A DNA stretch of 64,000 bases from positions 77,531 to 141,530 of the forward strand of contig CAZSVP010000003.1 of the NCBI GenBank assembly GCA_964610335.1. The letters are read 5' to 3'. The notes beneath the pieces are model-generated. The model had not been told where the DNA came from. It did no database searches and worked only from the letters and a program-made list of their open reading frames with translations. This document shows positions 1,902 to 43,533 of this stretch, piece after piece. The translations under genes were made by a program, and so were the position numbers. Origin of the DNA: an uncultured Candidatus Saccharibacteria bacterium (GTDB lineage: Bacteria; Patescibacteriota; Saccharimonadia; CAILAD01; BJGX01). How positions within the stretch are numbered: position 1 is the stretch's first letter; every line of letters begins with the position of its first letter.

Positions 1902-2762
1902 CTAACCAGAAAAACCCAGTATCAAATATTCTTCTAAGATAGGTTTGAGACCAGCGGCTCTTGCCAGCTTAGTAAGCATCTCATGTTGCCATGGGTCGGA
2001 TTCGTGGTAGACACGGCTACCTGGCTTGATATGCGTGGGTAAATCTCGATAAAAGCGTCGATAAAGATCGAGCCCATCACCAGGGCCACCAAATAGGGCA
2101 ATGGATGGTTCTTTCTGAACTTCTGGTTTCATACGCGGTTTGTAATCTTCGCTGACGTAGGGGAGATTGGTTACTACTGTTTCGAATTTGTCATCTATGC
2201 CTTCCCAGATATCGGCTTCAATAAAGTTGATCTTAGGATCTTTACCTAGTATGTCCTCGGCATTAAGCCTAGCTACATCAATGGCTTCAGGTGATACTTC
2301 AGTGGCTGTAATCTGCAGGTCAGGCCGGTGCTTGGCAATAGCTATAGCAATCGCCCCAGATCCAGTACCAATGTCTATTAGATTAGACCTTTGTGGTGCT
2401 TCCTTGATAGCCTGTTCAGCAACTAGCTCAGTTTCTACCCGGGGTGAAAGCACGCGGTTATCGACATAAAACTCAATTCCGTAAAACTCCAGTTTGTTGG
2501 TAATGTAGCAGACTGGCTCCCGATCCAATCTGCGCTGCAAATACCCCTCAAACTGCTTACGCTGCGCTGTGGTGAGCTTTTGATCGTCATGGGCCAATAA
2601 GTACGACTTATCCACACCCAACACATCACAGAGCAATAATTTGGCATCGAGTTGCCAGCTAGGTATATCGGCAGCCTTGAGCCGCTTTTGAGCAACTTCC
2701 AAAGTCGTTTTAATAGGTGCATCAACTATTGGCTTCGAGGGCTTTTTGGATGTCGGCTTCAT
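1902..2762 (-). CDS. prmC: Release-factor glutamine N5-methyltransferase (PrmC/HemK)
   Basis: SAM-binding '[13 protein letters not shown]' and 'NLPYV' (NPPY-like) motifs; overlaps and sits downstream of prfA, which is the classic arrangement. Confidence 0.8.
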
Positions 2763-3783
2763 GAAGTTTCTCTATTAGTTCAGATATATCACCATCCATC
2801 ACCTTAGGTAGGTTGTGGGTGGTGTAGCCAATGCGGTGGTCGGTAATCCGATCTTGAGGGTAGTTGTAGGTGCGGATCTTCTCACTGCGATCACCTGTAC
2901 CGATCTGACTTCGGCGAGCATCGCCTAGCTTCTTGGCTTCCTCTTCTTGCTGCTGAGCAAGCAAGCGGCTACGTAGCACACTCATGGCTTTGATCTTGTT
3001 TTTGAGCTGTGATTTCTCATCTTGGCAAGTGACGACTATGCCTGTGGGTATATGAGTAAGCCGCACAGCGCTATCAGTGGTATTAACACTCTGGCCACCA
3101 TTGCCGGAGCTACGATACACGTCGACCCGAAGATCATTGGGGCTTATTTCAATATCGTTTTCTTCGGCCTCAGGTAGTACTGCAACCGTGGCCGTACTGG
3201 TGTGAATTCGGCCGGCACTCTCGGTGGTAGGCACACGTTGTACACGGTGTACGCCGCTCTCATACTTGAGCGTGCCGTAGGCTTGATCGCCCGACACCTC
3301 AAATATTACCTCTTTGTAGCCACCTTCGGGGTTGGGGCTTTCGCTCAGCATTTGAGCCTTCAAATCGTGACGCTCACAGAAACGTACGTACATGCGCAAC
3401 AGATCACCGGCAAAGATTGAGCTTTCATCACCGCCAGCACCGGCTCGGATCTCAATAATGGCATTTTTGCGGTCATTGGGATCGGTTGGAATTAGTGCCA
3501 CTTGGATCTGTGATTCTAGCTTGGCCAATCTGGCTTCCAACTCGGGCACTTCCGCTTCGGCGAGCTCGCGCATCTCAGGGTCATTGAGCAAGGATTGGGC
3601 TTCTTTGAGCTGCTGCTGGCTTGATTGATAACGTTCAAACAGTTCCAGTTTGGATTGAAGCTCATGAGCTTGAGCACTCAAGCCCCCAGCTCGACCTGAT
3701 TTAAAGATTTCAGGATCTCTTAACTCAGCATTGATAGATTCAAGCTGTTGAGAGGTTTCCTTGATTTTGTCTGATATATCCAT
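2722..3783 (-). CDS. prfA: Peptide chain release factor 1
   Basis: GGQ motif '[23 protein letters not shown]' and PxT-type 'RVPTTES'; start refined to ATG at 3783 ('MDISDKIKE', the ORF-track start was TTG). Confidence 0.9.
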
Positions 3784-3857
3784 AAGTGTAAGATTTAATA
3801 GTAGTATACAACACAAAACGAGCCAGGATATGGCTCGCTTAAGATAGGTCTAATTAG

Positions 3858-14272: not shown

Positions 14273-16060
14273 ATGAAACAAATGTGGAAAATAATTCGAT
14301 ATTCCAGTAAGCTTTGGCCCTTCTACTTGTCGGCCACGGTTTTGGTGGTGATATTGGCTTTACTGAACTTAGTGACCCCATTCCTGACCAAAGGCTTGGT
14401 CGATGGGCTAACCACTCGATTTGGTGGCGGCAATGTCGACAATAGTTACTTCATAATACTTCTACTACTGATGCTAGGAGCCAATGTAGTAATTACACTG
14501 TTGGGTAATATCAACGGGTATATAGGTGACATTATGTCAGTTAAGCTAAACAACTTGCTTAGTGAGCGCTACTTTGCGCATCTGTTGAAACTGCCAATCA
14601 GCTACTATGACAACGAGATAACGGGTAAGATCACGGCGCGTCTTGATCGATCAATCGGTACTATCAGCACGCTTATGCAGACGCTTAGCAATAACTTCGT
14701 GCAGTTCTTTCTTACTACTTTTATCACTCTTGGTGTAATAGCGTTTTATTCTTGGCCAGTTGCTCTACTACTACTTATTATTTTCCCAGCATATATTTGG
14801 ATAACACACCTTAGCAGCAAGGCCTGGCAAGCCAAGCAGGAGGGGATCAACCAAGATCGTGATGTTGCCAATGGCCGGTTTGTAGAGAGCATTGGCCAGG
14901 TGCGGGTGGTTAAGTCCTACGTCACTGAGCTGCGTGAGCTGGGGTTCTTTAGCCGTCGTCGCCAGGCAATTGTTGGTCAGACCAAAGCTCAGTCCAGTCA
15001 GTGGCATCGCTATGATGTTATGCGCCAGCTTATTTTGAACCTGGTGTTTTTTGGTATATACGCAGTCATAATATTCCAAAGCCTCAACGGTGCCTACGGG
15101 CTGGGCACCGTGGTACTCTTGATCACTCTGGTCAACCAGGCTCAATGGCCATTGTTTGGTAGCAGCTTTATAGTCGATGCCTTGCAGCGAGCCACCGCTG
15201 ATAGCAAAGATTACTTTGCAGTTATGGATACCGAGCCAAATATCTCTGACCAAGCCAGCGCCAAGAAACTCAAGGTAAGCAAAGGGTTGGTAGAATATCA
15301 CAAGGTCGACTTTAGTTACGATGATAGTCATAAGGTCCTACGCGATGTAAGTTTTGCCATCAAACCCGGCTCCAAGCTAGCATTGGTAGGTGAATCTGGT
15401 GAAGGCAAGAGCACGCTGGCCAACCTGATGCTACGATTCTATGAAGTGACGGGTGGTAGTATCAAGATAGACGGTCAGGATATCAATCACATCACTCAAA
15501 CCAGCTTGCGCGAGTCTATTGGTGTGGTGTTCCAAGAAGCCCAACTTTTCTCAGGCACGGTGCGTGACAACATAGCCTATGCACGGCCCAAGGTCAGTGA
15601 GAAGGAGTTGGTTGCTGCCGCTAGAGCTGCCAATGCCTACGATTTTATACGCAAACTGCCCAAGGGCTTTGATACTCAGATTGGTGAGCGTGGGGTGAAA
15701 CTTAGCGGTGGCCAGAAGCAACGCATCGCCATAGCTCGTGCAATTCTCAAAGATGCGCCAATATTGATTCTAGATGAAGCCACCAGTAGCCTAGATAGCA
15801 AGGCTGAGCACGAGGTTCAAGAGGCCCTGGAGCGGCTTATGCAGAACCGTACTACCATGATCATCGCTCACCGCTTGAGCACTATCGCTGCAGTTGATAC
15901 TGTAGTCGGTATTCGTGGTGGTAAGGTGGCTGAGATAGGCTCTCCCGAGCAGCTAGCCAAACGCAAAGATGGTATTTACTCAGAGCTACTTCGTCTCCAG
16001 ACTATGCCAGTTACCGAGAAGCGCAAAGCCGAACTCAAGAAGTTCGATATGGCAATGTAG
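14273..16060 (+). CDS. ABC transporter fused permease/ATPase (MsbA/exporter type)
   Basis: Walker A 'GESGEGKST', signature 'LSGGQKQR', Walker B 'ILILDEAT'; 6-TM N-domain. Confidence 0.85.
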   Translation: MKQMWKIIRYSSKLWPFYLSATVLVVILALLNLVTPFLTKGLVDGLTTRFGGGNVDNSYFIILLLLMLGANVVITLLGNINGYIGDIMSVKLNNLLSERYFAHLLKLPISYYDNEITGKITARLDRSIGTISTLMQTLSNNFVQFFLTTFITLGVIAFYSWPVALLLLIIFPAYIWITHLSSKAWQAKQEGINQDRDVANGRFVESIGQVRVVKSYVTELRELGFFSRRRQAIVGQTKAQSSQWHRYDVMRQLILNLVFFGIYAVIIFQSLNGAYGLGTVVLLITLVNQAQWPLFGSSFIVDALQRATADSKDYFAVMDTEPNISDQASAKKLKVSKGLVEYHKVDFSYDDSHKVLRDVSFAIKPGSKLALVGESGEGKSTLANLMLRFYEVTGGSIKIDGQDINHITQTSLRESIGVVFQEAQLFSGTVRDNIAYARPKVSEKELVAAARAANAYDFIRKLPKGFDTQIGERGVKLSGGQKQRIAIARAILKDAPILILDEATSSLDSKAEHEVQEALERLMQNRTTMIIAHRLSTIAAVDTVVGIRGGKVAEIGSPEQLAKRKDGIYSELLRLQTMPVTEKRKAELKKFDMAM

Positions 16061-16640
16061 CTTGTGCTTGCCAGTGCACACTGTTTGTACTAGTATATCT
16101 TCCAGCAATCACGGGCCTTCGGGCCTGTGCTCGTCCTAGGAAGTGATTTGTGGTCTGCAAACCACGATAATCCTTTCTGGGGCCGCGATACGCAACTCGC
16201 GGCGTGAGTCGGGCTAGTCACCTGATTCGACTTCGACCTACGCGACGGTCGGTGTGAGTCCAGCCTTCACAAAGCTCCAAAAGGGCAAGCTGGCGTAAGG
16301 ACATGATGCTGTCCGGTGGGCTACGTTAAACCCCACGGGGGTTGCTCCCTACTGCTTTTCCCGCTTTTGCAGTAAAAAGAACACAAAGTGGTAGCTATTT
16401 GGCATTTTCTTGCTATGAAACGAAAAGCCGTAGTGGGTGGAATAGGTCTGTGACAAGACCGAAAAACCCCGGGAGTACGTGAACTCCAAGTTCGTAATTC
16501 GATTGCAGTGTGACTGCGAGTGAGAACGCATCGGTTCGTATTAGTGGGCGGTCAAGCTCCGGCCCCGTCTCGGTACGAATACTCATTCAAAAGACACTAA
16601 GCAGTTGAAATACGCGCGAGCCTTCACTTGGTTTCGATCA
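16061..16640. ncRNA. GC-rich structured non-coding locus with tmRNA-like signatures (candidate ssrA; architecture unresolved)
   Basis: + strand 16157-16207 encodes 'ANHDNPFWGRDTQLAA' followed by TGA (a tag-like frame that begins with a GCA resume-type codon and ends in LAA); 16211-16232 'GGGCUAG-UCACCUG-AUUCGAC' matches the tmRNA 5' acceptor/D-analog spacing; several UUCG/GNRA hairpins; no convincing protein ORF; no canonical T-arm/CCA end found. Confidence 0.35.
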
Positions 16641-16761
16641 GGTGTCGAAAGCCGGTTCGGGTCCTTCGGGATCCGGCCGGCGCTTTCGTTATAATCATAT
16701 TTTTGCTACAATCCAAGCCACCATTGGGCTTGATGCGGGCGGAACCACAACCGAGGTACCA

Positions 16762-17091
16762 ATGGAGCTTTACAATTTTCCCAAGCGTGGTGAACTGCGT
16801 ACCAAACTCAAGCAAGTTTGGCCAGCTCGTGAGTACGATGGCTTGATCGAACGAGTCGCCAGGCTGGCTGAAAAGCCAGTCACGCCAGATGGCCTGTTGG
16901 CTGCTCTCAGCTTGGCCATCGAAGACTTCGTGGCTGACACTGATCGCAGCGCTGATTTTCGTGCCGCGGCCTATGCCAATCTGCCAGCGGTGATTCGTGT
17001 GTTGCTGACCGATTCCCAGATGCGCAATCTGGCTCTCAACGAGTATGTCAGCATGCATCAGCGGCTGTTGCAGATCGAAACAAGCCAATAA
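16762..17091 (+). CDS. Hypothetical small protein (uncertain; could be part of the structured non-coding locus)
   Basis: ATG ORF 'MELYNFPKRGELRTKLKQVWPAREYDG...'; a competing antisense ORF is present. Confidence 0.3.
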   Translation: MELYNFPKRGELRTKLKQVWPAREYDGLIERVARLAEKPVTPDGLLAALSLAIEDFVADTDRSADFRAAAYANLPAVIRVLLTDSQMRNLALNEYVSMHQRLLQIETSQ

Positions 17092-17170
17092 CTTACCGGC
17101 CAACCAGGCTGTTCCCTGGTTGAAAGTACCTTGGCAGCTAGTGTCGGTCTAGTTGCCACAAAACGGGCAA

Positions 17171-17198
17171 CGTGGGGTGCCCCAAAAGGCACCCCACG
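17171..17198 (+). terminator. Perfect 11-bp GC hairpin with a CCAAAA loop (terminator-like, no U-tract)
   Basis: 'cgtggggtgcc-ccaaaa-ggcaccccacg'. Confidence 0.4.
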
Positions 17199-17214
17199 GG
17201 CCTGTGCCGAACCT

Positions 17215-17243
17215 TTGACTCTTATCTTATAATCTGGTATCAT
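17215..17243 (+). promoter_or_regulatory. Promoter for rpsB: TTGACT-N17-TATCAT with an upstream TG
   Basis: TTGACT at 17215-17220, TATCAT at 17238-17243, about 95 nt upstream of the rpsB ATG. Confidence 0.5.
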
Positions 17244-17340
17244 AGAGCTCACTTACATTATTTAACAAACCCATTTGCCGTTGAATCCTGTTCCGGTTAT
17301 TTTGCCGGAATCGAGGCAAGTGTGAAGAAAGAAGGAATCA

Positions 17341-18237
17341 ATGCCAACAAGTAAAAAAGCTGAAGGCGAAAGCCCAAAGCAAGAAGAAAAAACTACTGCA
17401 AAAACTGCAGCTAAGAAACCAACTGTAAAAAAAACTGTCGCTAAGAAACCTGCCGCTGAGACAGCTACTGAGGCTAAGACCGTCAAGCCGGCGGCTAAAG
17501 TCAAGATAGATCCTATCTTGCACAAACTACTCGAGGCCGGTGCTCACTTTGGCCACCAATCGAGTCGCTGGAATCCTAAGATGGCCAAGTATATCTATAC
17601 TACGCGTGGTGGGGTACATATCATTGATCTAACACAAACTGCCCAGCAACTGGCTGTCGCTAAGAAATTTGTCGAAGATATCACCAAGAATGGTGGCAAG
17701 ATTTTGTTTGTGTCCACCAAACGTCAAGCCAAGGCAGCTGTGCAAGAAGCTGCTAAGTCAGCCAACATGCCATACGTAACCTATCGCTGGCTAGGTGGTA
17801 TGCTTACCAACCTTGAGACTATCCAAAAACGAGTTTTGCGACTCAAGAAGCTTCGTACCCAACAAGAAGAGACAAGCTTCGCTGGTATGAGTAAGAAGGA
17901 TCGTGCAGGCCTTGAGCGTGAGCTGGAACTGCTAGAACGAACATTTTCCGGTATTGCTGACATGGAAGTAGTGCCAGCGGCGGTGTTTGTGGTCGATATG
18001 CCACGAGAGCATACTGCCATACTCGAAGCTCGCAAACTTGACATCCCAGTCTTGGCTATTTGTGATACCAACGCTGACCCTGATGATGTTGATTACCCTA
18101 TTCCGGCCAATGATGATGCTATTTCTGCAATAAGCCTAATTACCAGCGAAATAGGCGCGGCTGCAGCTAGTGGCGCTGCTATTCACGCTACCAAAGTAGC
18201 CAAGGAGACACCAGTTAATCAAGGAGAGGACAAATAG
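17341..18237 (+). CDS. rpsB: 30S ribosomal protein S2 with a ~60-aa Lys/Ala/Thr-rich N-terminal extension
   Basis: 'LLEAGAHFGHQSSRWNPKM' S2 signature begins near residue 62. Confidence 0.9.
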   Translation: MPTSKKAEGESPKQEEKTTAKTAAKKPTVKKTVAKKPAAETATEAKTVKPAAKVKIDPILHKLLEAGAHFGHQSSRWNPKMAKYIYTTRGGVHIIDLTQTAQQLAVAKKFVEDITKNGGKILFVSTKRQAKAAVQEAAKSANMPYVTYRWLGGMLTNLETIQKRVLRLKKLRTQQEETSFAGMSKKDRAGLERELELLERTFSGIADMEVVPAAVFVVDMPREHTAILEARKLDIPVLAICDTNADPDDVDYPIPANDDAISAISLITSEIGAAAASGAAIHATKVAKETPVNQGEDK

Positions 18238-36348: not shown

Positions 36349-36580
36349 GGCCGCGATGATTTGCTATAGAGTAAATCAGTCCTTTTAAAACCGTTTCTGT
36401 AGCAATATGTTCTGGAGGGTCGCTTTTTGTGATACCTCTTTTTTGTTTGGTATTTGCCGATCTAAGGCAGAACCCTGCGTGCTATTGTGTCATCTGCCGC
36501 CCAGTTGATGCATGGCCGCAGGACTCTGCCTTAGTAAATCGTCTGCTCCCGCTCGGGAGCCAAAACCCGAGGAGGGAGCA

Positions 36581-37819
36581 ATGTCCATATTCGGTAATCG
36601 CGATGTGCCAGTGCCTGAAGTTGATGGCATTGGTATGCCTCTAGGTGACAGCAACCGTCACGCCCCACCACGGGACGAGGACGAGCTTGCGGCTCATCTG
36701 GCAGCAGCATTGCGAGCCAAGCAGACCAGCCGACCGTCAGCCCCGCCCGGGGATCCAAAGAACCCCGAGGAGGGAGACATGACGAACCTGGGAGAGATGC
36801 TCGACGACAAGAGTCGAGCCGCCCTCGATCAAGCACGTGCCAGTGCCGAGGCAGCCGTGGACTTCTCGCTCAGCTATGAAGAGTGGGTGCCATGGCTGAA
36901 CGAGCACGGCATTCCGGTACCGAGTTCGGGAGACCCCAACCCGGACGAAGACTGGAAGCAGGTCCGAGCCTTGGTGGGACTCTTCCCGAGCGCGACGCGC
37001 AAGGCGAAGGCTCACTACCGCGAAGTACAGGCTAGTATCGAGAAGCTTCACAGCTACCTTGAGCAGGCCTGGTTGTCAGCCTGCGAACTCTTGGCGCAAG
37101 CCGGAGCGCAGTACGCCAACACCCAACCACCAGAACCAACCAACCCGACAGCCCCTCCGGGGGGCACACCAACCCCTGAGGAGGGCGTCATGAAGACCAG
37201 CGAGCAGATCAAAGTCGAGGCAGCCGAGCTGATGAAGGACTGGGCCAAACCCGAGCTGACCAGCGGTCTCTACCGCTGGGATGCCACGGTCTGGGACACC
37301 AGCCGGATCGGCGATGGCAAGATCGGCTACATTGGCCTCCTCTCGGGGAAGCTGATGTTCAGCCAGATCACGTACCTCGAGGAGTGCGTCGAGCGCGGAC
37401 GGGACCATCCCTTCGACAGCAACGACGTGCTCGACCAGCTCCACGTGCTGGTCCGCGAGTGGCTGAGCCTCGACCCGGCCTTCGTGGCCTTGGACGAGGC
37501 AGATGCCAAGCGCGAGGTGAGTCGGGCGGTCTATCGCGTGTTGCGCGGTGAGATCGCCTTCGACCAGGTGGCTTACGTGCCACCGCTCACCCCTGAGGAC
37601 CGGGCGGCAGCTCTGGCGGCGTCCATCCAGGCCGCAACCAAGCCCGAGGCCAAGAAGGTCAAGGGTCGTCGGCGCGGACGCGACAAGGGTGACAAGCCCA
37701 AGTCCGCCTCGGCGTTGCCCTCACCTCCGGTCACCCCTGTGGTGGTCGGCAGCCCGACCCTCGGTCGGTACGGCATCGCCGCCGCCACCGCCCTCGGTGA
37801 GGTCTGGCAGTCGCGCTAG
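36581..37819 (+). CDS. Island gene A: Pro/Ala-rich hypothetical protein (~412 aa) with a basic C-terminus
   Basis: Very high GC; GGAGGGAG SD 5 nt upstream of the ATG at 36581; two further in-frame SD+ATG units inside. Confidence 0.6.
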   Translation: MSIFGNRDVPVPEVDGIGMPLGDSNRHAPPRDEDELAAHLAAALRAKQTSRPSAPPGDPKNPEEGDMTNLGEMLDDKSRAALDQARASAEAAVDFSLSYEEWVPWLNEHGIPVPSSGDPNPDEDWKQVRALVGLFPSATRKAKAHYREVQASIEKLHSYLEQAWLSACELLAQAGAQYANTQPPEPTNPTAPPGGTPTPEEGVMKTSEQIKVEAAELMKDWAKPELTSGLYRWDATVWDTSRIGDGKIGYIGLLSGKLMFSQITYLEECVERGRDHPFDSNDVLDQLHVLVREWLSLDPAFVALDEADAKREVSRAVYRVLRGEIAFDQVAYVPPLTPEDRAAALAASIQAATKPEAKKVKGRRRGRDKGDKPKSASALPSPPVTPVVVGSPTLGRYGIAAATALGEVWQSR

Positions 37820-37867
37820 TTCGTGGCTGTCAGTGGTTGGTCTCGTTTGCTACAGGAGCGCGAGAGT

Positions 37868-37895
37868 GGTGTGGGGGTCTTCGGACCCCCACACC
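37868..37895 (+). terminator. Perfect 12-bp GC hairpin with a UUCG loop after gene A (no U-tract)
   Basis: 'ggtgtgggggtc-ttcg-gacccccacacc'. Confidence 0.45.
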
Positions 37896-37988
37896 TCAAC
37901 CACACTACTAGGATTAGTATTCCGATTGTGTCGAGTAGACAATTCAACATGCTTGAGACAGTCGGAAACCTGCTCCTGTAGCAACTTC

Positions 37989-38021
37989 AAACCCGTACCT
38001 CGGTGCAAACCGGGGGAATAC
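37989..38021 (+). repeat. Copy 1 of a 33-nt conserved leader element 'aaacccgtacctcggtgcaaaccgggggaatac' (plus upstream 'gctcctgta') preceding gene B
   Basis: Identical to 38519-38551. Confidence 0.8.
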
Positions 38022-38034
38022 CAAGGAGGCCCAC

Positions 38035-38361
38035 ATGGGACTCGCAGATGACCTGGCCGCACGCAAAGCAGCGAAGCAGGCTCCGCCGCCGCCCGCCAAG
38101 ACCACCATCGATGAGGTGGACAAGGCGATCGATGTGGCGCTCGCGCCCATCGTCGACGACTTCACCAAGGTCGTCACGGAGGCCCTCGCGCTCTTCGACA
38201 AGGAGACCGCGAGCGATGACTTCCTGGAGCGACTTCTGGTCGCGTTGGGAGACACCGATCTGCCCACCGGTGACGGCGTGCTCGAGGCCAAGGTGGCCGC
38301 TGCGGTCAACCGCGGCGTCGCCAACGCCATCGCCGCCGTGGTCGCCAACGCGACCAAGTGA
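38035..38361 (+). CDS. Island gene B: small acidic helical protein (108 aa)
   Basis: AGGAGG RBS; ATG at 38035. Confidence 0.6.
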   Translation: MGLADDLAARKAAKQAPPPPAKTTIDEVDKAIDVALAPIVDDFTKVVTEALALFDKETASDDFLERLLVALGDTDLPTGDGVLEAKVAAAVNRGVANAIAAVVANATK

Positions 38362-38373
38362 GCAGTTGCTCGG

Positions 38374-38404
38374 CCACCGGCGTACTCTCGTAGTACGTCG
38401 GTGG
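38374..38404 (+). terminator. 13-bp stem hairpin (one G.U) with a CUCG loop after gene B
   Basis: 'ccaccggcgtact-ctcg-agtacgtcggtgg'. Confidence 0.4.
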
Positions 38405-38518
38405 CATGAGCCACCACACATTCACATTAGATGTATAGAATCGTCTTGCTGATATTTATCTTCATGGCAATGGAGCATTACTTCGGTAGTGATCAGCAAC
38501 CGCGCTCCTGTACAAACC

Positions 38519-38551
38519 AAACCCGTACCTCGGTGCAAACCGGGGGAATAC
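38519..38551 (+). repeat. Copy 2 of the 33-nt leader element preceding gene C
   Basis: Identical to 37989-38021. Confidence 0.8.
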
Positions 38552-38566
38552 TAGTTGGAGACTGTT

Positions 38567-39067
38567 ATGGCAGCACCAATGGCCGCGGCCGCAGCTCAAG
38601 GGTTGTTGGCTGCATTTGGCGGCGCTAACCCGCCGCCGCCCGGGGGCAATCCACCCGGCGGTGGAATGCAACCACGAAATGCTGGCATCGTCGCTGGCAT
38701 CGTCGCTTCGGTACTCGCGATCCTGACCTACATCGGGTTGGGACTGTGGGACGCTGTCGGCTGGGGCAAGGGTCTGATCGGTTTCGTGCTCGTTGGTGTT
38801 CTCGCCTTCGGGGTCACGTTTCTCATCTGCATCCGTCCACCTCAGCCGCGACAGCCCGCCGCTCCGGCACCAGCACCAGCGGCCACCAACCACACCTTCA
38901 TCGCCATCATGGTGGGGTGTGGTACGACGATCGTTGCTTCGATCGTTGCGGTGGTGGCTGTCAGCCGGTTCAGCGATGACGGTGCCTTCAGGATGTTGGC
39001 CTTCCTGGCCCCATACCTGATAGCCGGAGTCATCGCCACTCGGGCACTGTTCAAGCGCGGCAGCTAG
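38567..39067 (+). CDS. Island gene C: 4-TM membrane protein with a Pro/Gly-rich N-terminus
   Basis: ATG at 38567 (the ORF-track start was TTG); four hydrophobic helices. Confidence 0.55.
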   Translation: MAAPMAAAAAQGLLAAFGGANPPPPGGNPPGGGMQPRNAGIVAGIVASVLAILTYIGLGLWDAVGWGKGLIGFVLVGVLAFGVTFLICIRPPQPRQPAAPAPAPAATNHTFIAIMVGCGTTIVASIVAVVAVSRFSDDGAFRMLAFLAPYLIAGVIATRALFKRGS

Positions 39068-39100
39068 GCCGACCATGAAGGGGAACCTCCATGGTCGGCC
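39067..39100 (+). terminator. 11-bp perfect hairpin after gene C
   Basis: 'ggccgaccatg-aaggggaacctc-catggtcggcc'. Confidence 0.4.
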
Positions 39101-39298
39101 GCGAGGCCCTGGGCTGAGTTTCTCGATTTGCGTCGAGAGACCACCCAGGTGCCCTCGCACCTCAACCTACATATTAGGCTTATGCTTTATAAGAGACCGT
39201 AACAAGTGTAATCTTAATATGTGGGCTGAATCTTGGAGAGAAAACCAAGCTTAAGCACACAACCGCACCCATACATCAACCATAGAGGAGGTGGTCCT

Positions 39299-40726
39299 AT
39301 GACACGTAGTCACAGGATCTTCGCCGCCTGTGCGATTGTCTTCACCATGCTCATTGCATTGGTGGGGGCGGTTGCCATCGGCACATCGAGTGGTCAGACC
39401 GCCTCAAGCGGCAGCACGACCACGACATCACTCGAGCCAGTCCCTGGCTCGGTCACCACCACGCCAGCGCCAACCGACAACGTGCCGGCGGCCACGCCCG
39501 AGGAGCGCAAACCCACGGTCACGGCTGAGCAGTGTCACGATCGGATCGGTGCCTCGGAAGAGAAGGACCGCGAGCTCCAGGAGCAAGGCATCACCGCCGA
39601 ACAGTGTGGTCTGCTGCTGGTGGAGCTCTGTCAGAAGGTCGACTTCGATGGCGTTCGCGCCCTCGGAGAGTCCGACCCATCAGGCAAGTGCGCCGCCGTG
39701 ATGGCCGGTGTGAGTACGACGCAGAACACCGCGCCGACCAGCACCGCGCCTGGAGCAACAGCTCCATCTGGCACAACGCCGGGCTCAACGGCACCGCCAA
39801 CCACGGCTACCCCAACGCCTCGTCAACCCGATGTGGTGGATCTCATGATCTATCTGCAGAAGGTCAGCATGGCCGAAGGGCACGTCCAAGGAGTCGGTGT
39901 CACCTGTGAGGCCAATTGCGTTCTGCGCGACGGTATCACGGCTGATACCCCCGAGGGCATGTTCGCCCAGCTCATGAGCAAGGGTCTCGTCTCGCCAGTC
40001 TTTCTCGATGATGCAGCCCGCACCATCGCGTTCCAGACCGGGCAGGAGTACACCGACACTCGAGAGGTGGGCGACGCCGCCAAGGCCGGCAGTGACACAC
40101 TGATCGTGCTGAACTGGATCAAGGACCCGAGCACCCCAACCATGTTGGAGCGCGGGATCTTGCCAGCCGGCACGACGCTGTACAACACCGTCGTACAAGA
40201 CGGCAAGGTGGTGCAGTTCAGCTACACCACCAACCGGGATCGGGTCTACCTCAAGATCTGGAAGGGCGACACCTTCCTGATGTGGTTCGACAGCTGCGGG
40301 AACAGGACGAGCGATCGTCCGACGCCTGGAGTGCCCGAGACCCCAACGCCGCCACCGCACGACGACGAGCCACCGACCACGACGACACCACCACCGACCG
40401 GTGGGCCGACCCCGACCACGACACCACCAGCGTGTCCGCCAGGCACGATCTGGAACCCGGTCACGAAGAAGTGTGGGAAGTTGGATACCCATCCAGTGGG
40501 ACCCAACAGCCCTGTTCCTACCCAGGTGCAGGGCCCAGGGCCAACCCATCCGGCAGGGCCACCCAACACGGCGATCGAGCATCCGAACCCCACGACTGGT
40601 TGCAATCCAACCTGTCCGGGGGCAACGACGCCCACCACAAGGGCGGTGACACCCACGGTGCCGCCGATCGTCACCAGCACCACGTACCAGCCGCCTCCGA
40701 CGCCCACCACCATGGGCGGGCCGTAG
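39299..40726 (+). CDS. Island gene D: secreted or anchored Thr/Pro-rich protein (signal-anchor 'MTRSHRIFAACAIVFTMLIALVGAVAIG', PT-rich C-terminus)
   Basis: GGAGGTGG RBS; ATG at 39299. Confidence 0.6.
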   Translation: MTRSHRIFAACAIVFTMLIALVGAVAIGTSSGQTASSGSTTTTSLEPVPGSVTTTPAPTDNVPAATPEERKPTVTAEQCHDRIGASEEKDRELQEQGITAEQCGLLLVELCQKVDFDGVRALGESDPSGKCAAVMAGVSTTQNTAPTSTAPGATAPSGTTPGSTAPPTTATPTPRQPDVVDLMIYLQKVSMAEGHVQGVGVTCEANCVLRDGITADTPEGMFAQLMSKGLVSPVFLDDAARTIAFQTGQEYTDTREVGDAAKAGSDTLIVLNWIKDPSTPTMLERGILPAGTTLYNTVVQDGKVVQFSYTTNRDRVYLKIWKGDTFLMWFDSCGNRTSDRPTPGVPETPTPPPHDDEPPTTTTPPPTGGPTPTTTPPACPPGTIWNPVTKKCGKLDTHPVGPNSPVPTQVQGPGPTHPAGPPNTAIEHPNPTTGCNPTCPGATTPTTRAVTPTVPPIVTSTTYQPPPTPTTMGGP

Positions 40727-40811
40727 TCGGCACTGACAACTCTGGCCTCGAGTGAGGACCGTCGCCAGAGTGAGAAGTCCCAGTCCTCCATGATGTATGG
40801 GTGCAATTGCT

Positions 40812-40839
40812 GCCCTGGGGAGCCAAAACTCCCCAGGGC
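40812..40839 (+). terminator. 11-bp GC hairpin with a CCAAAA loop after gene D, near the island's right boundary
   Basis: 'gccctggggag-ccaaaa-ctccccagggc'. Confidence 0.4.
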
Positions 40840-40890
40840 TAGCACCCACACCCTAAGCTGAAGACAGTGCAGCTACTAGCTACCTTGTCT

Positions 40891-40908
40891 TCAGGATAGG
40901 TATCCTGA
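40891..40908. promoter_or_regulatory. Palindrome 'tcaggata-gg-tatcctga' (8-bp arms), a putative regulator binding site
   Basis: Located 21 bp upstream of the -35 box of the LPXTG-gene promoter. Confidence 0.35.
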
Positions 40909-40928
40909 AAAGAAAACCATAACAAATA

Positions 40929-40957
40929 TTGACACCAATACTAAATTATGATATTAT
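40929..40957 (+). promoter_or_regulatory. Near-consensus promoter TTGACA-N17-TATTAT for the LPXTG gene
   Basis: Motifs at 40929-40934 and 40952-40957. Confidence 0.55.
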
Positions 40958-41055
40958 AACCGCTAATTGAGAGGCGGAGCTCATTTACAGCCAAATACGA
41001 TGCATTTACTAATTGAGACTTGTCAAACATTAAACCTGACAAGGAAGGAAACTAT

Positions 41056-42351
41056 ATGAAAAAGAAATCAACTTTTCGTAAAGTTCTCGGCATTGTATTG
41101 GCAACAGTAGCTTTAGTGGTAATGCCACTGGCTGCAGCTGCTGATTGGAGCCCTGAACGACCGATCAAAGAATATTATCCAGGAGTACCTGGTTTTGATC
41201 ATGTGACATTTAACTCGTTTGTTAAAACCGCCAATTATGGCGACGAACGACTTTTCTATACTGCCAAGGATGCGGCTAATACCAATTCTGGCGGTTTCGA
41301 TGACAGCATGCAGGTGCATGCTGGTCAAGAGATACTTATGCGCACCTATATACATAACGGTGCCGACTCAAGTCTCAATGCAGGTGGCACGGGCATAGCT
41401 CGTAACACCAAGGTAAAGGTAATGCTGCCAAGTGGCTATGACAAAGCCTTGCGCTCTGTTAGCTACATAAGTGCTAGCAATGCACAGCCAGGTACTGTAG
41501 CGGCTTCTGTTGATCTAAAGGGTGACAACCCATTTGGTCTGCAGTATGTTGCAGGATCTGCTATGGCTTATAGTAACCAAGCTCCCAATGGCTTCAAACT
41601 CAACGATAGTATCGTGGGTGATGGCGCCTTGGTCGGTAATGTTGCTCCAGATGGTAATGTACCAGGCTGCTTCGAGTATGGTGTGGTTGTAACCATGAAA
41701 GTGAAAGTTACAGCTGCCAACTTGAGCATTCAAAAGCAAGTTGGTATCCCAGGCTCTGGTCAATGGAAAGAACAAGTACAAGTCGGCAAAGGTGATACTG
41801 TAAGCTGGGGAATCCACTACGAAAACACCGGTGACCGCGTCATGCACAAAGAAGTAGTAACTGACAAACTACCCCCTTACCACGAAGTGGTACCAGGTAG
41901 TGTCAAGCTCTACGTGCCCAATGCTCCAGAAGGCGCTCAACTCAATGACACTTCGTTGTTTAACGAAGGTGTAATGGTTGGTGACTACGCTCCAGGAGCT
42001 GGTGGTAACATACGTTACCAAACTCGGGTCAAACAAGATGTACCTGCAAACTTGCTAATGCGTAATGTGGCTTGTATCGGATCAGATGAGACTCAGACTG
42101 ACATCTGTGATGATGCTACTACTATTACCCCTCCAACACCTCCACCTACACCGGAGTGTTTGCCAGGCATACCAGTAGGTGATAGCCGCTGTAACCCTGT
42201 AACGCCTCCCCCTACAGGTGGTCCGTTGCCAGCAACTGGTGTGGAAAGTGGCTTGGCTGCAAGTCTAGGCATGACTGCCCTTACAACCGGTGGTTATATG
42301 CTACGACGTAGCCGTAAGGACCTCAAAAAGGCCCTCACCAAAGTAAAATAA
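41056..42351 (+). CDS. LPXTG-anchored cell-surface protein (sortase substrate)
   Basis: Signal peptide 'MKKKSTFRKVLGIVLATVALVVMPLAAAADW'; C-terminal 'LPATG' plus hydrophobic stretch plus 'RRSRKD' sorting signal. Confidence 0.8.
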   Translation: MKKKSTFRKVLGIVLATVALVVMPLAAAADWSPERPIKEYYPGVPGFDHVTFNSFVKTANYGDERLFYTAKDAANTNSGGFDDSMQVHAGQEILMRTYIHNGADSSLNAGGTGIARNTKVKVMLPSGYDKALRSVSYISASNAQPGTVAASVDLKGDNPFGLQYVAGSAMAYSNQAPNGFKLNDSIVGDGALVGNVAPDGNVPGCFEYGVVVTMKVKVTAANLSIQKQVGIPGSGQWKEQVQVGKGDTVSWGIHYENTGDRVMHKEVVTDKLPPYHEVVPGSVKLYVPNAPEGAQLNDTSLFNEGVMVGDYAPGAGGNIRYQTRVKQDVPANLLMRNVACIGSDETQTDICDDATTITPPTPPPTPECLPGIPVGDSRCNPVTPPPTGGPLPATGVESGLAASLGMTALTTGGYMLRRSRKDLKKALTKVK

Positions 42352-42371: not shown

Positions 42372-42408
42372 AAGACCCAAATCTCACCTCGAGAGGCGGG
42401 TCTTTTTG
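42372..42408 (+). terminator. Intrinsic terminator (agaccc...gggtct plus TTTTT)
   Basis: Hairpin followed by a T-run directly after the LPXTG gene. Confidence 0.55.
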
Positions 42409-42429
42409 ATTTATTGGTATAATAAAGTC

Positions 42430-43533
42430 ATGAAAGATATTGTGAAACAACTGACTGGGTTATTAAACCAGGTTGATAATGCCATAGATGCACTTAGTCT
42501 CGAAGCTGATGAGGCAAAGTTGGCTGGTATGGAAGAACAAATGATAGCAAGTGATTTCTGGCAAGACACCATGCAAGCCGAGCAGGTTAGCCGCGAGGCC
42601 GCTGAGCTTAAACGCTACATTGGGTCCTGGCGCGATTTACGCGAGGAGCTTGCTACGACCCTCGAATTGGCCGAATTGTCGAGTGATTCACAGTCAAGTG
42701 AGTTCAGTGATTTACTAGCTGATTATAATAGGCGCGTTGGGGAGCAAATGCTGGCACTCAAGCTTGGTGGAGAACACGACAAAGCAGCTGCAATTATCCA
42801 ACTAAGTGCTGGGGTTGGTGGTACAGATGCTGCTGATTGGGCTCAGATGCTCGAAACAATGTACATCAAGTATGCCAACACACACGGATTTAGCGTGGAA
42901 GTACTGGAAGAATCGCCCAGTGAAGAGGCTGGCATCAAGAGTGCAACCTTGCGAGTAAGTGGCCCATTTGCTTTTGGCAAACTAAAGGGTGAGTCAGGAG
43001 TACATCGGCTGGTGCGTTTGAGCCCATTCAATTCCGACAATCTTCGTCAAACTAGTTTTGCCTTGGTAGAGGTGTTGCCAGAAATAGTGGCAACCGAGTC
43101 GGTTTTGGATCCCAAAGATCTGCGAGTCGATGTCTACCGCAGTTCTGGCCACGGTGGCCAAAGTGTGAATACTACTGATAGTGCAGTTCGGTTGACACAT
43201 ATTCCAACTGGTATGACTGTGGCAGTCCAAAACGAGCGTTCTCAGCTCAAGAACAAACAAATGGCCATGTCGATATTGGCAGCTAAACTCAATAAACTTG
43301 CAGAAGAACAACACTTGGCAAATGTATCAGACCTCAAAACTAGCAGTAAGTCAGCCGATTGGGGAGCGCAGATACGCAACTATGTGTTGCACCCATATCA
43401 AAAAGTCAAAGATGTACGCACTGGCTACGAAACTAGTGATACCACAGGGGTCTTGGCTGGTGAACTAGAACCATTTATAGAGGCTTACCTTAATAAACAA
43501 GTAGGAAATCCCGAAAGCAAAAGGCAAAAATAA
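42430..43533 (+). CDS. prfB: Peptide chain release factor 2 (no programmed frameshift)
   Basis: 'SPF' tripeptide in 'RLSPFNS' and the GGQ motif '[23 protein letters not shown]'; ATG at 42430, with TATAAT ending 6 nt upstream. Confidence 0.85.
   Translation: MKDIVKQLTGLLNQVDNAIDALSLEADEAKLAGMEEQMIASDFWQDTMQAEQVSREAAELKRYIGSWRDLREELATTLELAELSSDSQSSEFSDLLADYNRRVGEQMLALKLGGEHDKAAAIIQLSAGVGGTDAADWAQMLETMYIKYANTHGFSVEVLEESPSEEAGIKSATLRVSGPFAFGKLKGESGVHRLVRLSPFNSDNLRQTSFALVEVLPEIVATESVLDPKDLRVDVYRSSGHGGQSVNTTDSAVRLTHIPTGMTVAVQNERSQLKNKQMAMSILAAKLNKLAEEQHLANVSDLKTSSKSADWGAQIRNYVLHPYQKVKDVRTGYETSDTTGVLAGELEPFIEAYLNKQVGNPESKRQK

Follow-up and report, generated by a model that had tools for sequence, protein, structure and literature searches.

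Does the non-coding gap downstream of an ATP-binding cassette (ABC) exporter gene in a Candidatus Saccharibacteria (Patescibacteria) chromosome encode a transfer-messenger RNA (tmRNA), or an RNA of another kind that resembles one? The locus lies in a stretch of 64,000 nucleotides (the window, to which all positions refer), where the exporter gene (14273–16060, + strand) is followed by a 701-nt non-coding gap (16061–16761). A sequence-only reading had recognized two hallmarks of tmRNA here, a tag-like reading frame and a string resembling the 5′ strand of the tRNA-like domain (TLD), and had left three options: a tmRNA permuted or reduced in some new way, a degenerate ssrA gene, or a different large non-coding RNA (ncRNA) that resembles tmRNA by coincidence. 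The evidence presented here supports the last of these. The tag-like frame and the 5′ motif are parts of local hairpins (H2, H3, and H4), not of a tmRNA, and the locus is best explained, with a probability that we put at about 0.68, as an independently transcribed, structured ncRNA gene of ~590 nt on the + strand that belongs to no known family and acts via its fold.

A Conserved Non-coding Element with Covarying Structure

The RNA gene is predicted to occupy ~16104–16690 of the + strand (~590 nt). The interval initially assigned to it (16061–16640) proved too short, since the non-coding gap continues to 16761 and the element to ~16690; nor does the gap begin with the RNA, as a promoter-like site (16068–16096) comes first. 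Other features of the interval were correctly described: its GC content is 53%–57% versus ~46% in the surrounding genome, it holds no open reading frame (ORF) with a coding signal, and it contains stable hairpins, with GGGCC-TTCG-GGCC present at 16113–16124. Relatives were reached via the contigs of homologs of the 109-residue protein encoded downstream of the gap (six clusters in a large protein collection) and via exporter orthologs. In three loci from the same strain as the window (L001–L003), the RNA is identical or differs by one C/T change at 16102. A homologous element was found in a second species (locus L089), between the exporter gene and a gene for a 110-residue protein. The two elements are 66% identical in aligned columns, a level similar to that of coding DNA; at fourfold-degenerate sites, by contrast, the flanking genes are just 34%–39% identical, i.e. 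saturated.

This conservation is not that of a protein. Substitutions between the window and L089 are equal over the three codon positions in every frame; the indels are of 1, 3, 4, 7, 15, 17, and 20 nt, and since these are not all multiples of 3, coding is excluded. A Pfam search of the ORFs of the region gave no match, and we rejected a protein-coding gene or pseudogene on these combined grounds (no codon periodicity, frame-breaking indels, no Pfam match). In L089, the source assembly annotates a gene for a 165-residue protein opposite the RNA (789–1286, − strand of that locus). Neither a Pfam match nor a codon-position bias supports this ORF, and searches of 5.8 billion clusters and of 1.84 billion representatives yielded no relative of it; it is for these reasons almost certainly a spurious annotation over the RNA gene.

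Folding and alignment with the relative, which had been proposed as a check for covariation, instead support a structured RNA. Minimum free energy z-scores are −4.6 (window) and −4.5 (L089) for the + strand, and −2.5 and −1.9, respectively, for the − strand. The RNAalifold consensus of the two sequences has 141 pairs; 21 of them, including one in H4, carry changes in both partners, and no pair is broken. When the columns of the same alignment were shuffled, 0/500 shuffles attained the observed covariation, and sliding the partners by 1–3 columns left at most two double changes; the control is a lenient one, given that these two sequences had also yielded the structure. Some 17 helices have thus persisted across a divergence at which synonymous sites are saturated. 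The number of G-U pairs (21–23) and the consensus alifold energy (−147 kcal/mol for the + strand versus −100 kcal/mol for the − strand) identify the + strand as the RNA strand. The most over-represented 4-mers in the element are UUCG and UACG, both UNCG-type loop sequences. In its conservation, its non-coding nature, and its strand-specific covarying structure, together with a predicted promoter and terminator, the locus has the general marks of a stand-alone structured ncRNA gene.

Anatomy of the RNA Gene

The features of the gene are as follows, from 5′ to 3′:

16068–16096, + strand: promoter-like site, sigma-70-like, from a consensus scan (TTGCCA, 17-nt spacer, TAGTAT)
16110–16129, + strand: H1, 8-bp hairpin with a UUCG loop (CACGGGCC-UUCG-GGCCUGUG), from the local fold
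16135–16181, + strand: H2, long bulged hairpin, from the fold, with double compensatory changes at four pairs between the window and L089
16157–16207, + strand: tag-like frame ANHDNPFWGRDTQLAA*, inside H2 and H3
16182–16203, + strand: H3, 7-bp hairpin with the 8-nt loop UACGCAAC, from the fold and alignment; encodes the frame end ...GRDTQLAA
16205–16229, + strand: H4, 9-bp hairpin UGAGUCGGG-CUAGUCA-CCUGAUUCG, from the fold and alignment; contains the TLD-like motif (16211–16231)
16230–16255, + strand: H5, hairpin with the 8-nt loop UACGCGAC, from the fold and alignment; a second H3-type module
16258–16314, + strand: H6 (CCAGC...GCUGG around an inner hairpin), the invariant junction GCUGGCGUAAGGA, and H7 with a conserved UGAUGC loop
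16316–16489, + strand: central variable region with hairpins H8–H13, whose sizes differ between the species and whose stems are kept by compensatory changes
16490–16617, + strand: 3′ domain, in which a long closing helix (UUCGAUUGCAGUGU / ACACUAAGCAGUUGAA) encloses a branched core, with five double-change pairs
16625–16644, + strand: H18, 8-bp hairpin with a UUCG loop, from the local fold
16646–16704, + strand: terminal 18-bp hairpin CGAAAGCCGG-U-CGGGUCC-UUCG-GGAUCCG-GCCGGC-GC-UUUCG (16646–16688), followed by a U-rich tail

The promoter-like site has a counterpart in L089 (TTGCCA-17-TAATAT) in which the hexamers are kept and the spacer has diverged, and a decayed remnant persists in L084, a lineage without the RNA; its position implies a transcription start at ~16103–16105. 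At the position of H1, L089 has a hairpin of another size with a CGAA loop. An internal direct repeat of 22 nt (16189–16210 and 16239–16260; 77% identity, 50-nt spacing) makes H3 and H5 look like a duplicated module, consisting of a stem, a UACGCRAC loop, and then GUGAGUC. The 7-nt loop of H4 (CUAGUCA) is invariant between the window and L089, and the 3′ domain contains the invariant segments GUGUGACUG and GUGAGAAYGCAUCGGUUCGU. H18 corresponds in L089 to a hairpin of 7–9 bp with another 5′ strand and loop; a long-range pairing of CACCUGAU (16221–16228) with AUCAGGUG (16636–16643) was rejected, as it is not kept in L089, where the local hairpin is. A 52-nt block of the terminal hairpin is identical at 51/52 positions in the two species. 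This hairpin is the probable intrinsic terminator and would form the 3′ end of the RNA; it was not called at 16646–16704 by a consensus terminator scan, because its U tract is interrupted.

The H4 loop (16214–16220) is complementary to the invariant UGACUG at 16509–16514 (six pairs, including one G-U), and it includes the self-complementary CUAG. Both sides of the pairing are identical in the two species. The complementarities suggest candidate intra- or intermolecular loop contacts.

The tmRNA-like Motifs Are Parts of Local Hairpins

Both tmRNA-like motifs are present as described. The frame, running from GCA to GCG GCG TGA at 16157–16207, reads ANHDNPFWGRDTQLAA*, and GGGCTAG-TCACCTG-ATTCGAC (GGGCTAGTCACCTGATTCGAC) follows at 16211–16231, 3 nt past the stop codon. 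A GGG-N10-GATTCGAC string is expected 0.03 times per window and an AN...[LAV]AA-stop frame ~0.02 times, and each was observed once. In tmRNA, the tag begins with a single-stranded Ala resume codon after the first pseudoknot (PK1), ~90 nt from the 5′ end, and finishes with a hydrophobic ..AA and a stop codon. The TLD has a 7-bp acceptor stem with a G3-U70 pair, a discriminator base, and CCA, and the T-arm, a 5-bp stem with a 7-nt loop of the GGUUCGAnUCC type, lies just before the 3′ acceptor strand. The gene order of permuted tmRNA is acceptor piece (T-arm, 3′ strand, CCA), intervening segment, and coding piece (5′ strand, PK1, tag). A tmRNA gene is also expected to be universal, single-copy, and kept by close relatives, and its product to function with SmpB. 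The element resembles tmRNA/SsrA (RF00023; permuted forms RF01849–RF01851) in that its frame starts with Ala (AN...) and ends with ...LAA-stop, in its GGGNNNN-N8-UUCGAC string with the spacing of a 5′ end, and in being structured and rich in stable tetraloops. It differs from tmRNA in lacking a T-arm, a 3′ acceptor/CCA, and closure of a tRNA-like domain, and in having its tag 3 nt before the 5′ motif rather than ~90 nt after it; moreover, its motifs lie in local hairpins backed by covariation, no model gives a signal, and it is dispensable in sister lineages.

Searches of kinds proposed in the sequence-only reading, with the Rfam tmRNA and permuted models and with ARAGORN, revealed no tmRNA signal. 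ARAGORN with default settings reported a tRNA-Leu as its only hit in the window and no tmRNA; in relaxed mode (ps70-95), where it yielded 24 spurious permuted tmRNAs across the window, it reported nothing on the + strand at the locus. Rfam 15 (4227 models, including the standard, alpha, beta, cyano, and mitochondrial tmRNA models) gave no match to the element at gathering thresholds, and no relevant match at E ≤ 10 to stretches of 1001 nt, 801 nt (L089), and 201 nt, where the output comprised chance-level matches to microRNAs, small nucleolar RNAs, and small RNAs (14–17 bits, E 4–7.5). It had been noted early on that no T-arm/CCA strand complementary to GGGCUAG could be seen, and a strand search and ARAGORN agree: a 3′ acceptor strand of the CUAG(Y)CC(A)CCA type with up to two mismatches is absent from the + strand in or near the locus, and reading of the L089 sequence likewise reveals no 3′ acceptor/CCA strand. 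The GGUUCG strings at 16526 and 16654 do not have the T-arm geometry of a 5-bp stem with a 7-nt loop.

The structural context of both motifs explains their conservation in other terms. The TLD-like motif forms the loop and 3′ strand of H4, paired with an upstream UGAGUC. In L089 the H4 stem (UGAGUCGAG/CUCGAUUCG) has one G-C pair replaced by A-U through changes on both strands (G to A at 16212, matched by C to U opposite) and one G-U pair replaced by G-C, and this compensation implies that what constrains the string is hairpin pairing rather than the role of a free acceptor strand. In H2, the apical loop (CUGCAA) includes the supposed resume codon GCA (16157), and the 3′ strand comprises codons 2–8 of the tag-like frame. 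The ungapped L089 frame (GCU CGC CAC GAA AGU AUC UCA CAG GGU CGC GAU ACG GAA AUC GCG GCG UGA) reads ARHESISQGRDTEIAA*. That the frame be conserved in homologous loci had been set as a test of the tmRNA proposal, and the outcome is divided: the length, the Ala start, and the ...AA-stop end are kept in L089, but selection on the peptide is not apparent. Amino-acid identity (8/16, 50%) is below nucleotide identity (36/51, 71%), the conserved GRDT..AA* is the H3 stem, and the variable middle (P/I, F/S, W/Q) changes along with its pairing partners in H2. The lower amino-acid identity and the covariation of the middle codons argue for constraint at the level of RNA rather than peptide. Given that the RNA is conserved, it would in our judgement not be surprising if an open frame of 16 codons starting with GCN had been kept by chance.

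None of the known forms of tmRNA fits these observations. A standard-form tmRNA was rejected on account of the H4 motif, the missing acceptor and T-arm, the frame preceding the 5′ motif, and the absence of the element from two sister lineages (L084–L087 and L088/L134–L137). For a permuted two-piece tmRNA, the sequence upstream of GGGCUAG comprises H3 and the tag-like frame where a T-arm and CCA would be expected, and RF01849–RF01851 and the permuted mode of ARAGORN gave no match at the locus on the + strand. The group I intron tmRNA, a standard tmRNA interrupted in the T-loop with a gene of at least 545 bp (PMC11915505), was also rejected, as neither a tmRNA model nor the Intron_gpI model matched at E ≤ 10 and the frame is not preceded by a 5′ tRNA-like strand. 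For Patescibacteria, tmRNAs of the ordinary standard form are reported, numbering 5252 across 6765 genomes (PMC11915505, Supplementary Table 2). The proposal of a newly permuted or reduced tmRNA is thus not borne out, and that of a degenerate ssrA fares no better, with no covariance-model or ARAGORN signal, no T-arm, and no element at the same site in two sister lineages.

An Accessory RNA in a Variable Slot

Four related species-level lineages were compared, two of which (the window and L089) have the element. At the corresponding site, the L084–L087 lineage has just 100 nt and the L088/L134–L137 lineage just 81 nt, and more distant Saccharibacteria have unrelated small protein genes in the slot. 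Exporter sequences group the window with L084 and L089 with L088, such that each pair is split by presence and absence of the RNA; the element was therefore most likely in the common ancestor of the four lineages and deleted twice. The end points of the deletions differ between the lineages, with L084 keeping the decayed promoter region. Since two of the four close lineages lack it, the RNA is accessory, not housekeeping; such a pattern would not be expected of an essential single-copy ssrA (or RNase P RNA). A blastn search of all 140 fetched loci found no additional copy, nor did a covariance model of H3–H5 applied to the window and to the loci of 30 relatives.

Across Saccharibacteria the region between the exporter gene and rpsB (16061–17340; loci L084–L095 and L132–L140) is variable, and depending on the lineage contains the RNA plus the 109-residue gene, the 109-residue gene alone, or unrelated small genes. 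The latter include genes for proteins of 133, 141 (high GC), 154, and 206 residues, an abhydrolase, and a 105-residue protein.

Comparison with Other RNA Systems

The element belongs to none of the 4227 curated families and, on the basis of two sequences, is new as an RNA family; its general kind, the stand-alone structured ncRNA, is already familiar. ROOL is ~580 nt long. The element is comparable to ROOL, GOLLD, and OLE in size class (~590 nt), in its many helices and stable tetraloops, in being a stand-alone gene with no obligatory neighboring protein gene, and in likewise having no assigned function; with ROOL and GOLLD it shares a patchy accessory distribution. In contrast to these RNAs, the element is neither beside tRNAs nor in a prophage, and it is so far confined to two Saccharibacteria lineages. 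The ROOL, GOLLD, OLE, HEARO, and raiA models found no sequence or structure match to the element at E ≤ 10. ROOL and GOLLD may be regarded as its nearest analogies (by size and ornateness, by having no partner gene, and by their patchiness), without homology. Cryo-electron microscopy shows these large ornate bacterial RNAs to be RNA-only homo-oligomers (PMC12286853); oligomerization of the present element would be pure conjecture.

The repeated hairpins with related loops (UACGCAAC, UACGCGAC, and CUACGUUAAAC) and the 50-nt module duplication are reminiscent of protein-sequestering small RNAs of the CsrB/RsmZ type. In contrast to these, the element has just three or four such loops, without the GGA motifs of CsrA sites, and most of it is unique, non-repetitive structure. 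RNase P RNA was considered because the window segments AGUCCAGCC, GGGCAAGCUGGCGUAA, and AAACCCCACG are collinear with what we take to be P4–P9 of the type A RNA (RF00010) of Escherichia coli. These M1-like stretches are not conserved in L089, the CCAGC/GCUGG strands supposed to form P4 pair locally, and regions CR-IV and CR-V are lacking; with Rfam silent and the gene dispensable in sister lineages, this identity was rejected. No Rfam signal was obtained for group I/II introns, self-cleaving ribozymes, T-boxes, riboswitches, ribosomal-protein leaders, or 6S, signal recognition particle, and Y RNAs. A TIGR array (PMC12045711), CRISPR, and a type III toxin-antitoxin RNA were rejected, as there is neither an array of tandem units nor a Tas or Cas gene, and the downstream 109-residue gene also exists without the RNA. 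An integron attC cassette or a miniature inverted-repeat transposable element does not fit a single-copy element without core sites or terminal repeats.

Alternative Explanations

That the element is nonetheless the organism's own tmRNA in a non-canonical form, with the tag at 16157–16207 and GGGCUAG...GAUUCGAC as the 5′ half of the tRNA-like domain, is highly improbable in our estimation. The adjacency of two rare motifs, the conservation of the length and ends of the frame in L089, and the lack of ssrA and smpB elsewhere in the window favor it, as does the resemblance of the first five codons (ANHDN) to the start of the E. coli tag (ANDEN). Against this stand the missing T-arm, GGGCUAG-complementary strand, and CCA; the silence of ARAGORN on the + strand at thresholds that yield false tmRNAs elsewhere in the window, and of all tmRNA models at E ≤ 10 even with the 201-nt query; and an order, tag then 5′ strand, that fits neither a standard nor a permuted gene. 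The motif folds into a hairpin in which a compensatory change has occurred, the resume codon is in a hairpin loop with the tag in a hairpin of ~20 bp, sister lineages lack the element, and Patescibacteria have standard-form tmRNAs. The same frame could instead be translated conventionally into a micro-protein of 17–19 residues, alone or from a dual-function RNA (TTG 16148...TGA 16207, MWSANHDNPFWGRDTQLAA; in L089 GTG-GCU..., MARHESISQGRDTEIAA). An in-frame TTG or GTG shortly before the Ala codon in each species, an AGGAAG that precedes the TTG of the window copy by 4 nt, and the conserved frame length are compatible with this reading. We nevertheless consider it very unlikely: the peptide is less conserved than its nucleotides, the radical replacements (P/I, F/S, W/Q) coincide with compensatory base-pair changes, the start and the Shine-Dalgarno-like sequence are buried in H2, and the frame accounts for just 57 of the ~590 conserved nucleotides.

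A role in cis, either as the 3′ untranslated region (UTR) of the exporter mRNA or as a leader controlling the 109-residue gene and the rpsB operon via the terminal hairpin, is quite unlikely. No strong terminator separates the exporter stop codon from the element; the succession of promoter, structured RNA, terminator hairpin, and gene resembles the layout of an attenuator leader; and UUCGAC (16226–16237) could pair with GUCGAA (16644–16649), in competition with the base of the terminal hairpin. However, relatives without the element retain both flanking genes and the 60-nt region upstream of the 109-residue gene, the element has conserved promoter hexamers of its own, its 590 nt and ~17 helices place it far above the size of known attenuators, and no riboswitch, T-box, or ribosomal-protein leader model matches. 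The patchy presence with two independent deletions, the different small genes (some of high GC) that the slot holds across Saccharibacteria, and the GC content above the genome average could also be accommodated by non-functional or selfish DNA, i.e. what is left of a mobile element, an intron without an ORF, or a pseudogene that is being lost from a variable slot. This, too, is unlikely, in view of the 66% identity retained despite saturated neutral sites, with changes that preserve pairing. Nor does the element have inverted or direct repeats at its ends, or a second copy, whether in the window or at the relatives' loci; it matches no model of an intron, ribozyme, or insertion sequence-associated RNA, and no transposase, reverse transcriptase, or integrase gene lies near it.

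A Proposed Mode of Action

Several points weigh against the preferred explanation of an independent structured RNA gene acting via its fold. Just two divergent copies are available, and the structure was both derived from and tested on them; the ends of the RNA, and its transcription itself, are predictions from sequence. Two adjacent tmRNA-like features are improbable by chance, and we can explain them only as convergence plus structural constraint. The distribution is very narrow, such that the RNA could be young or decaying: blastn searches of phage and plasmid collections and motif scans of IMG/VR and of JGI metagenomes found no homolog. Furthermore, no partner protein was found to co-vary in presence with the RNA.

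With these reservations, our best guess, by analogy, is that the independent RNA gene encodes a trans-acting, architectural or protein-binding “ornate” RNA. The RNA would be transcribed from its own conserved promoter and end at the long terminal hairpin, and it would act in trans by its folded shape, either binding protein or self-assembling, and not via a tag or antisense pairing. The parts most constrained in sequence are loops and junctions (CUAGUCA, GCUGGCGUAAGGA, GUGUGACUG, and GUGAGAAYGCAUCGGUUCGU) plus the terminal hairpin, a pattern from which tertiary contacts or protein-binding sites are expected rather than an antisense seed. Candidate contact sites would be the hairpin modules with UACGCRAC loops, the CUAGUCA loop, and the nearly invariant terminal hairpin. 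A more far-reaching proposal, which we advance tentatively and at somewhat less than even odds, is that the element represents an undescribed class of large ornate RNA (~590 nt) of a small Saccharibacteria clade, an accessory RNA-only element that comes and goes as a whole in a variable chromosomal slot and acts by its three-dimensional fold through self-assembly or protein capture. An exotic variant of this proposal takes H2–H4 to be an exapted relic of a duplicated ssrA, which would explain why a tag-like frame stands beside a TLD-like 5′ string.

Genomic Context

Homologs of the exporter are assigned by their sources to Candidatus Saccharibacteria or Patescibacteria. Downstream of the gap lie the 109-residue gene (16762–17091), whose product has no Pfam match, and rpsB-tsf-frr-uppS-rseP. 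The ~60 nt preceding the 109-residue gene (16703–16761; TACAATCC...CCACCATTGG...GCGGGCGGAACC...GAGG) are conserved in every relative, whether or not it has the RNA, so that the gene retains its conserved upstream region where the RNA is missing; this segment probably comprises its own promoter and a conserved 5′ UTR element. Ribosomal protein S2 (17341–18237) has an N-terminal extension of ~60 residues: its Pfam match begins at residue 63, and most of its tblastn matches in other bacteria begin near residue 60. The closest S2 found by a pattern scan among 185,579 GTDB species representatives is only 51%–55% identical. A scan of genome contigs with S2 gave relatives at ≤51% identity only, and a metagenome scan with the ABC exporter found relatives at ≤58% identity only.

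The remainder of the window is housekeeping chromosome (prfA, prmC, L31, typA, mreBCD-pbp2, greA, lysS, serS, hpf, secA, prfB, and ftsEX), and no smpB or mobility genes were found among the genes of the 64 kb. A block of ~4 kb (36800–41000) has a GC content of 60%–63%, compared with 41%–54% elsewhere in the window, and long ORFs on both strands. The plausible genes at 36512–37819 (+ strand), 38462–39160 (− strand), 39233–40726 (+ strand), and 41020–42351 (+ strand, just past the block) have no Pfam match, and the block looks like a foreign island or a set of unusual surface-protein genes. The window has two class I release-factor genes with PCRF and RF-1 domains (42406–43533 and 2722–3816); the one at 42406, listed with a TTG start, directly follows a gene for a 443-residue protein without a Pfam match.

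Significance

The locus calls for caution in annotation, as two textbook hallmarks of tmRNA may co-occur in sequence that is not a tmRNA. To our knowledge, few bacterial ncRNAs exceed ~400 nt and have complex conserved structure, namely the rRNAs, RNase P, tmRNA, group I/II introns, OLE, GOLLD, ROOL, and HEARO. Most such large RNAs have proved to be ribozymes, ribonucleoprotein cores, or RNA-only assemblies. If the present interpretation is true, a new large RNA in Patescibacteria adds an example from a phylum in which RNA biology has hardly been explored. Genomes in this phylum are of ~1 Mb, with little room for non-essential sequence, and Saccharibacteria are ultrasmall episymbionts; the presence and absence of the RNA in close relatives provides a natural knockout comparison.

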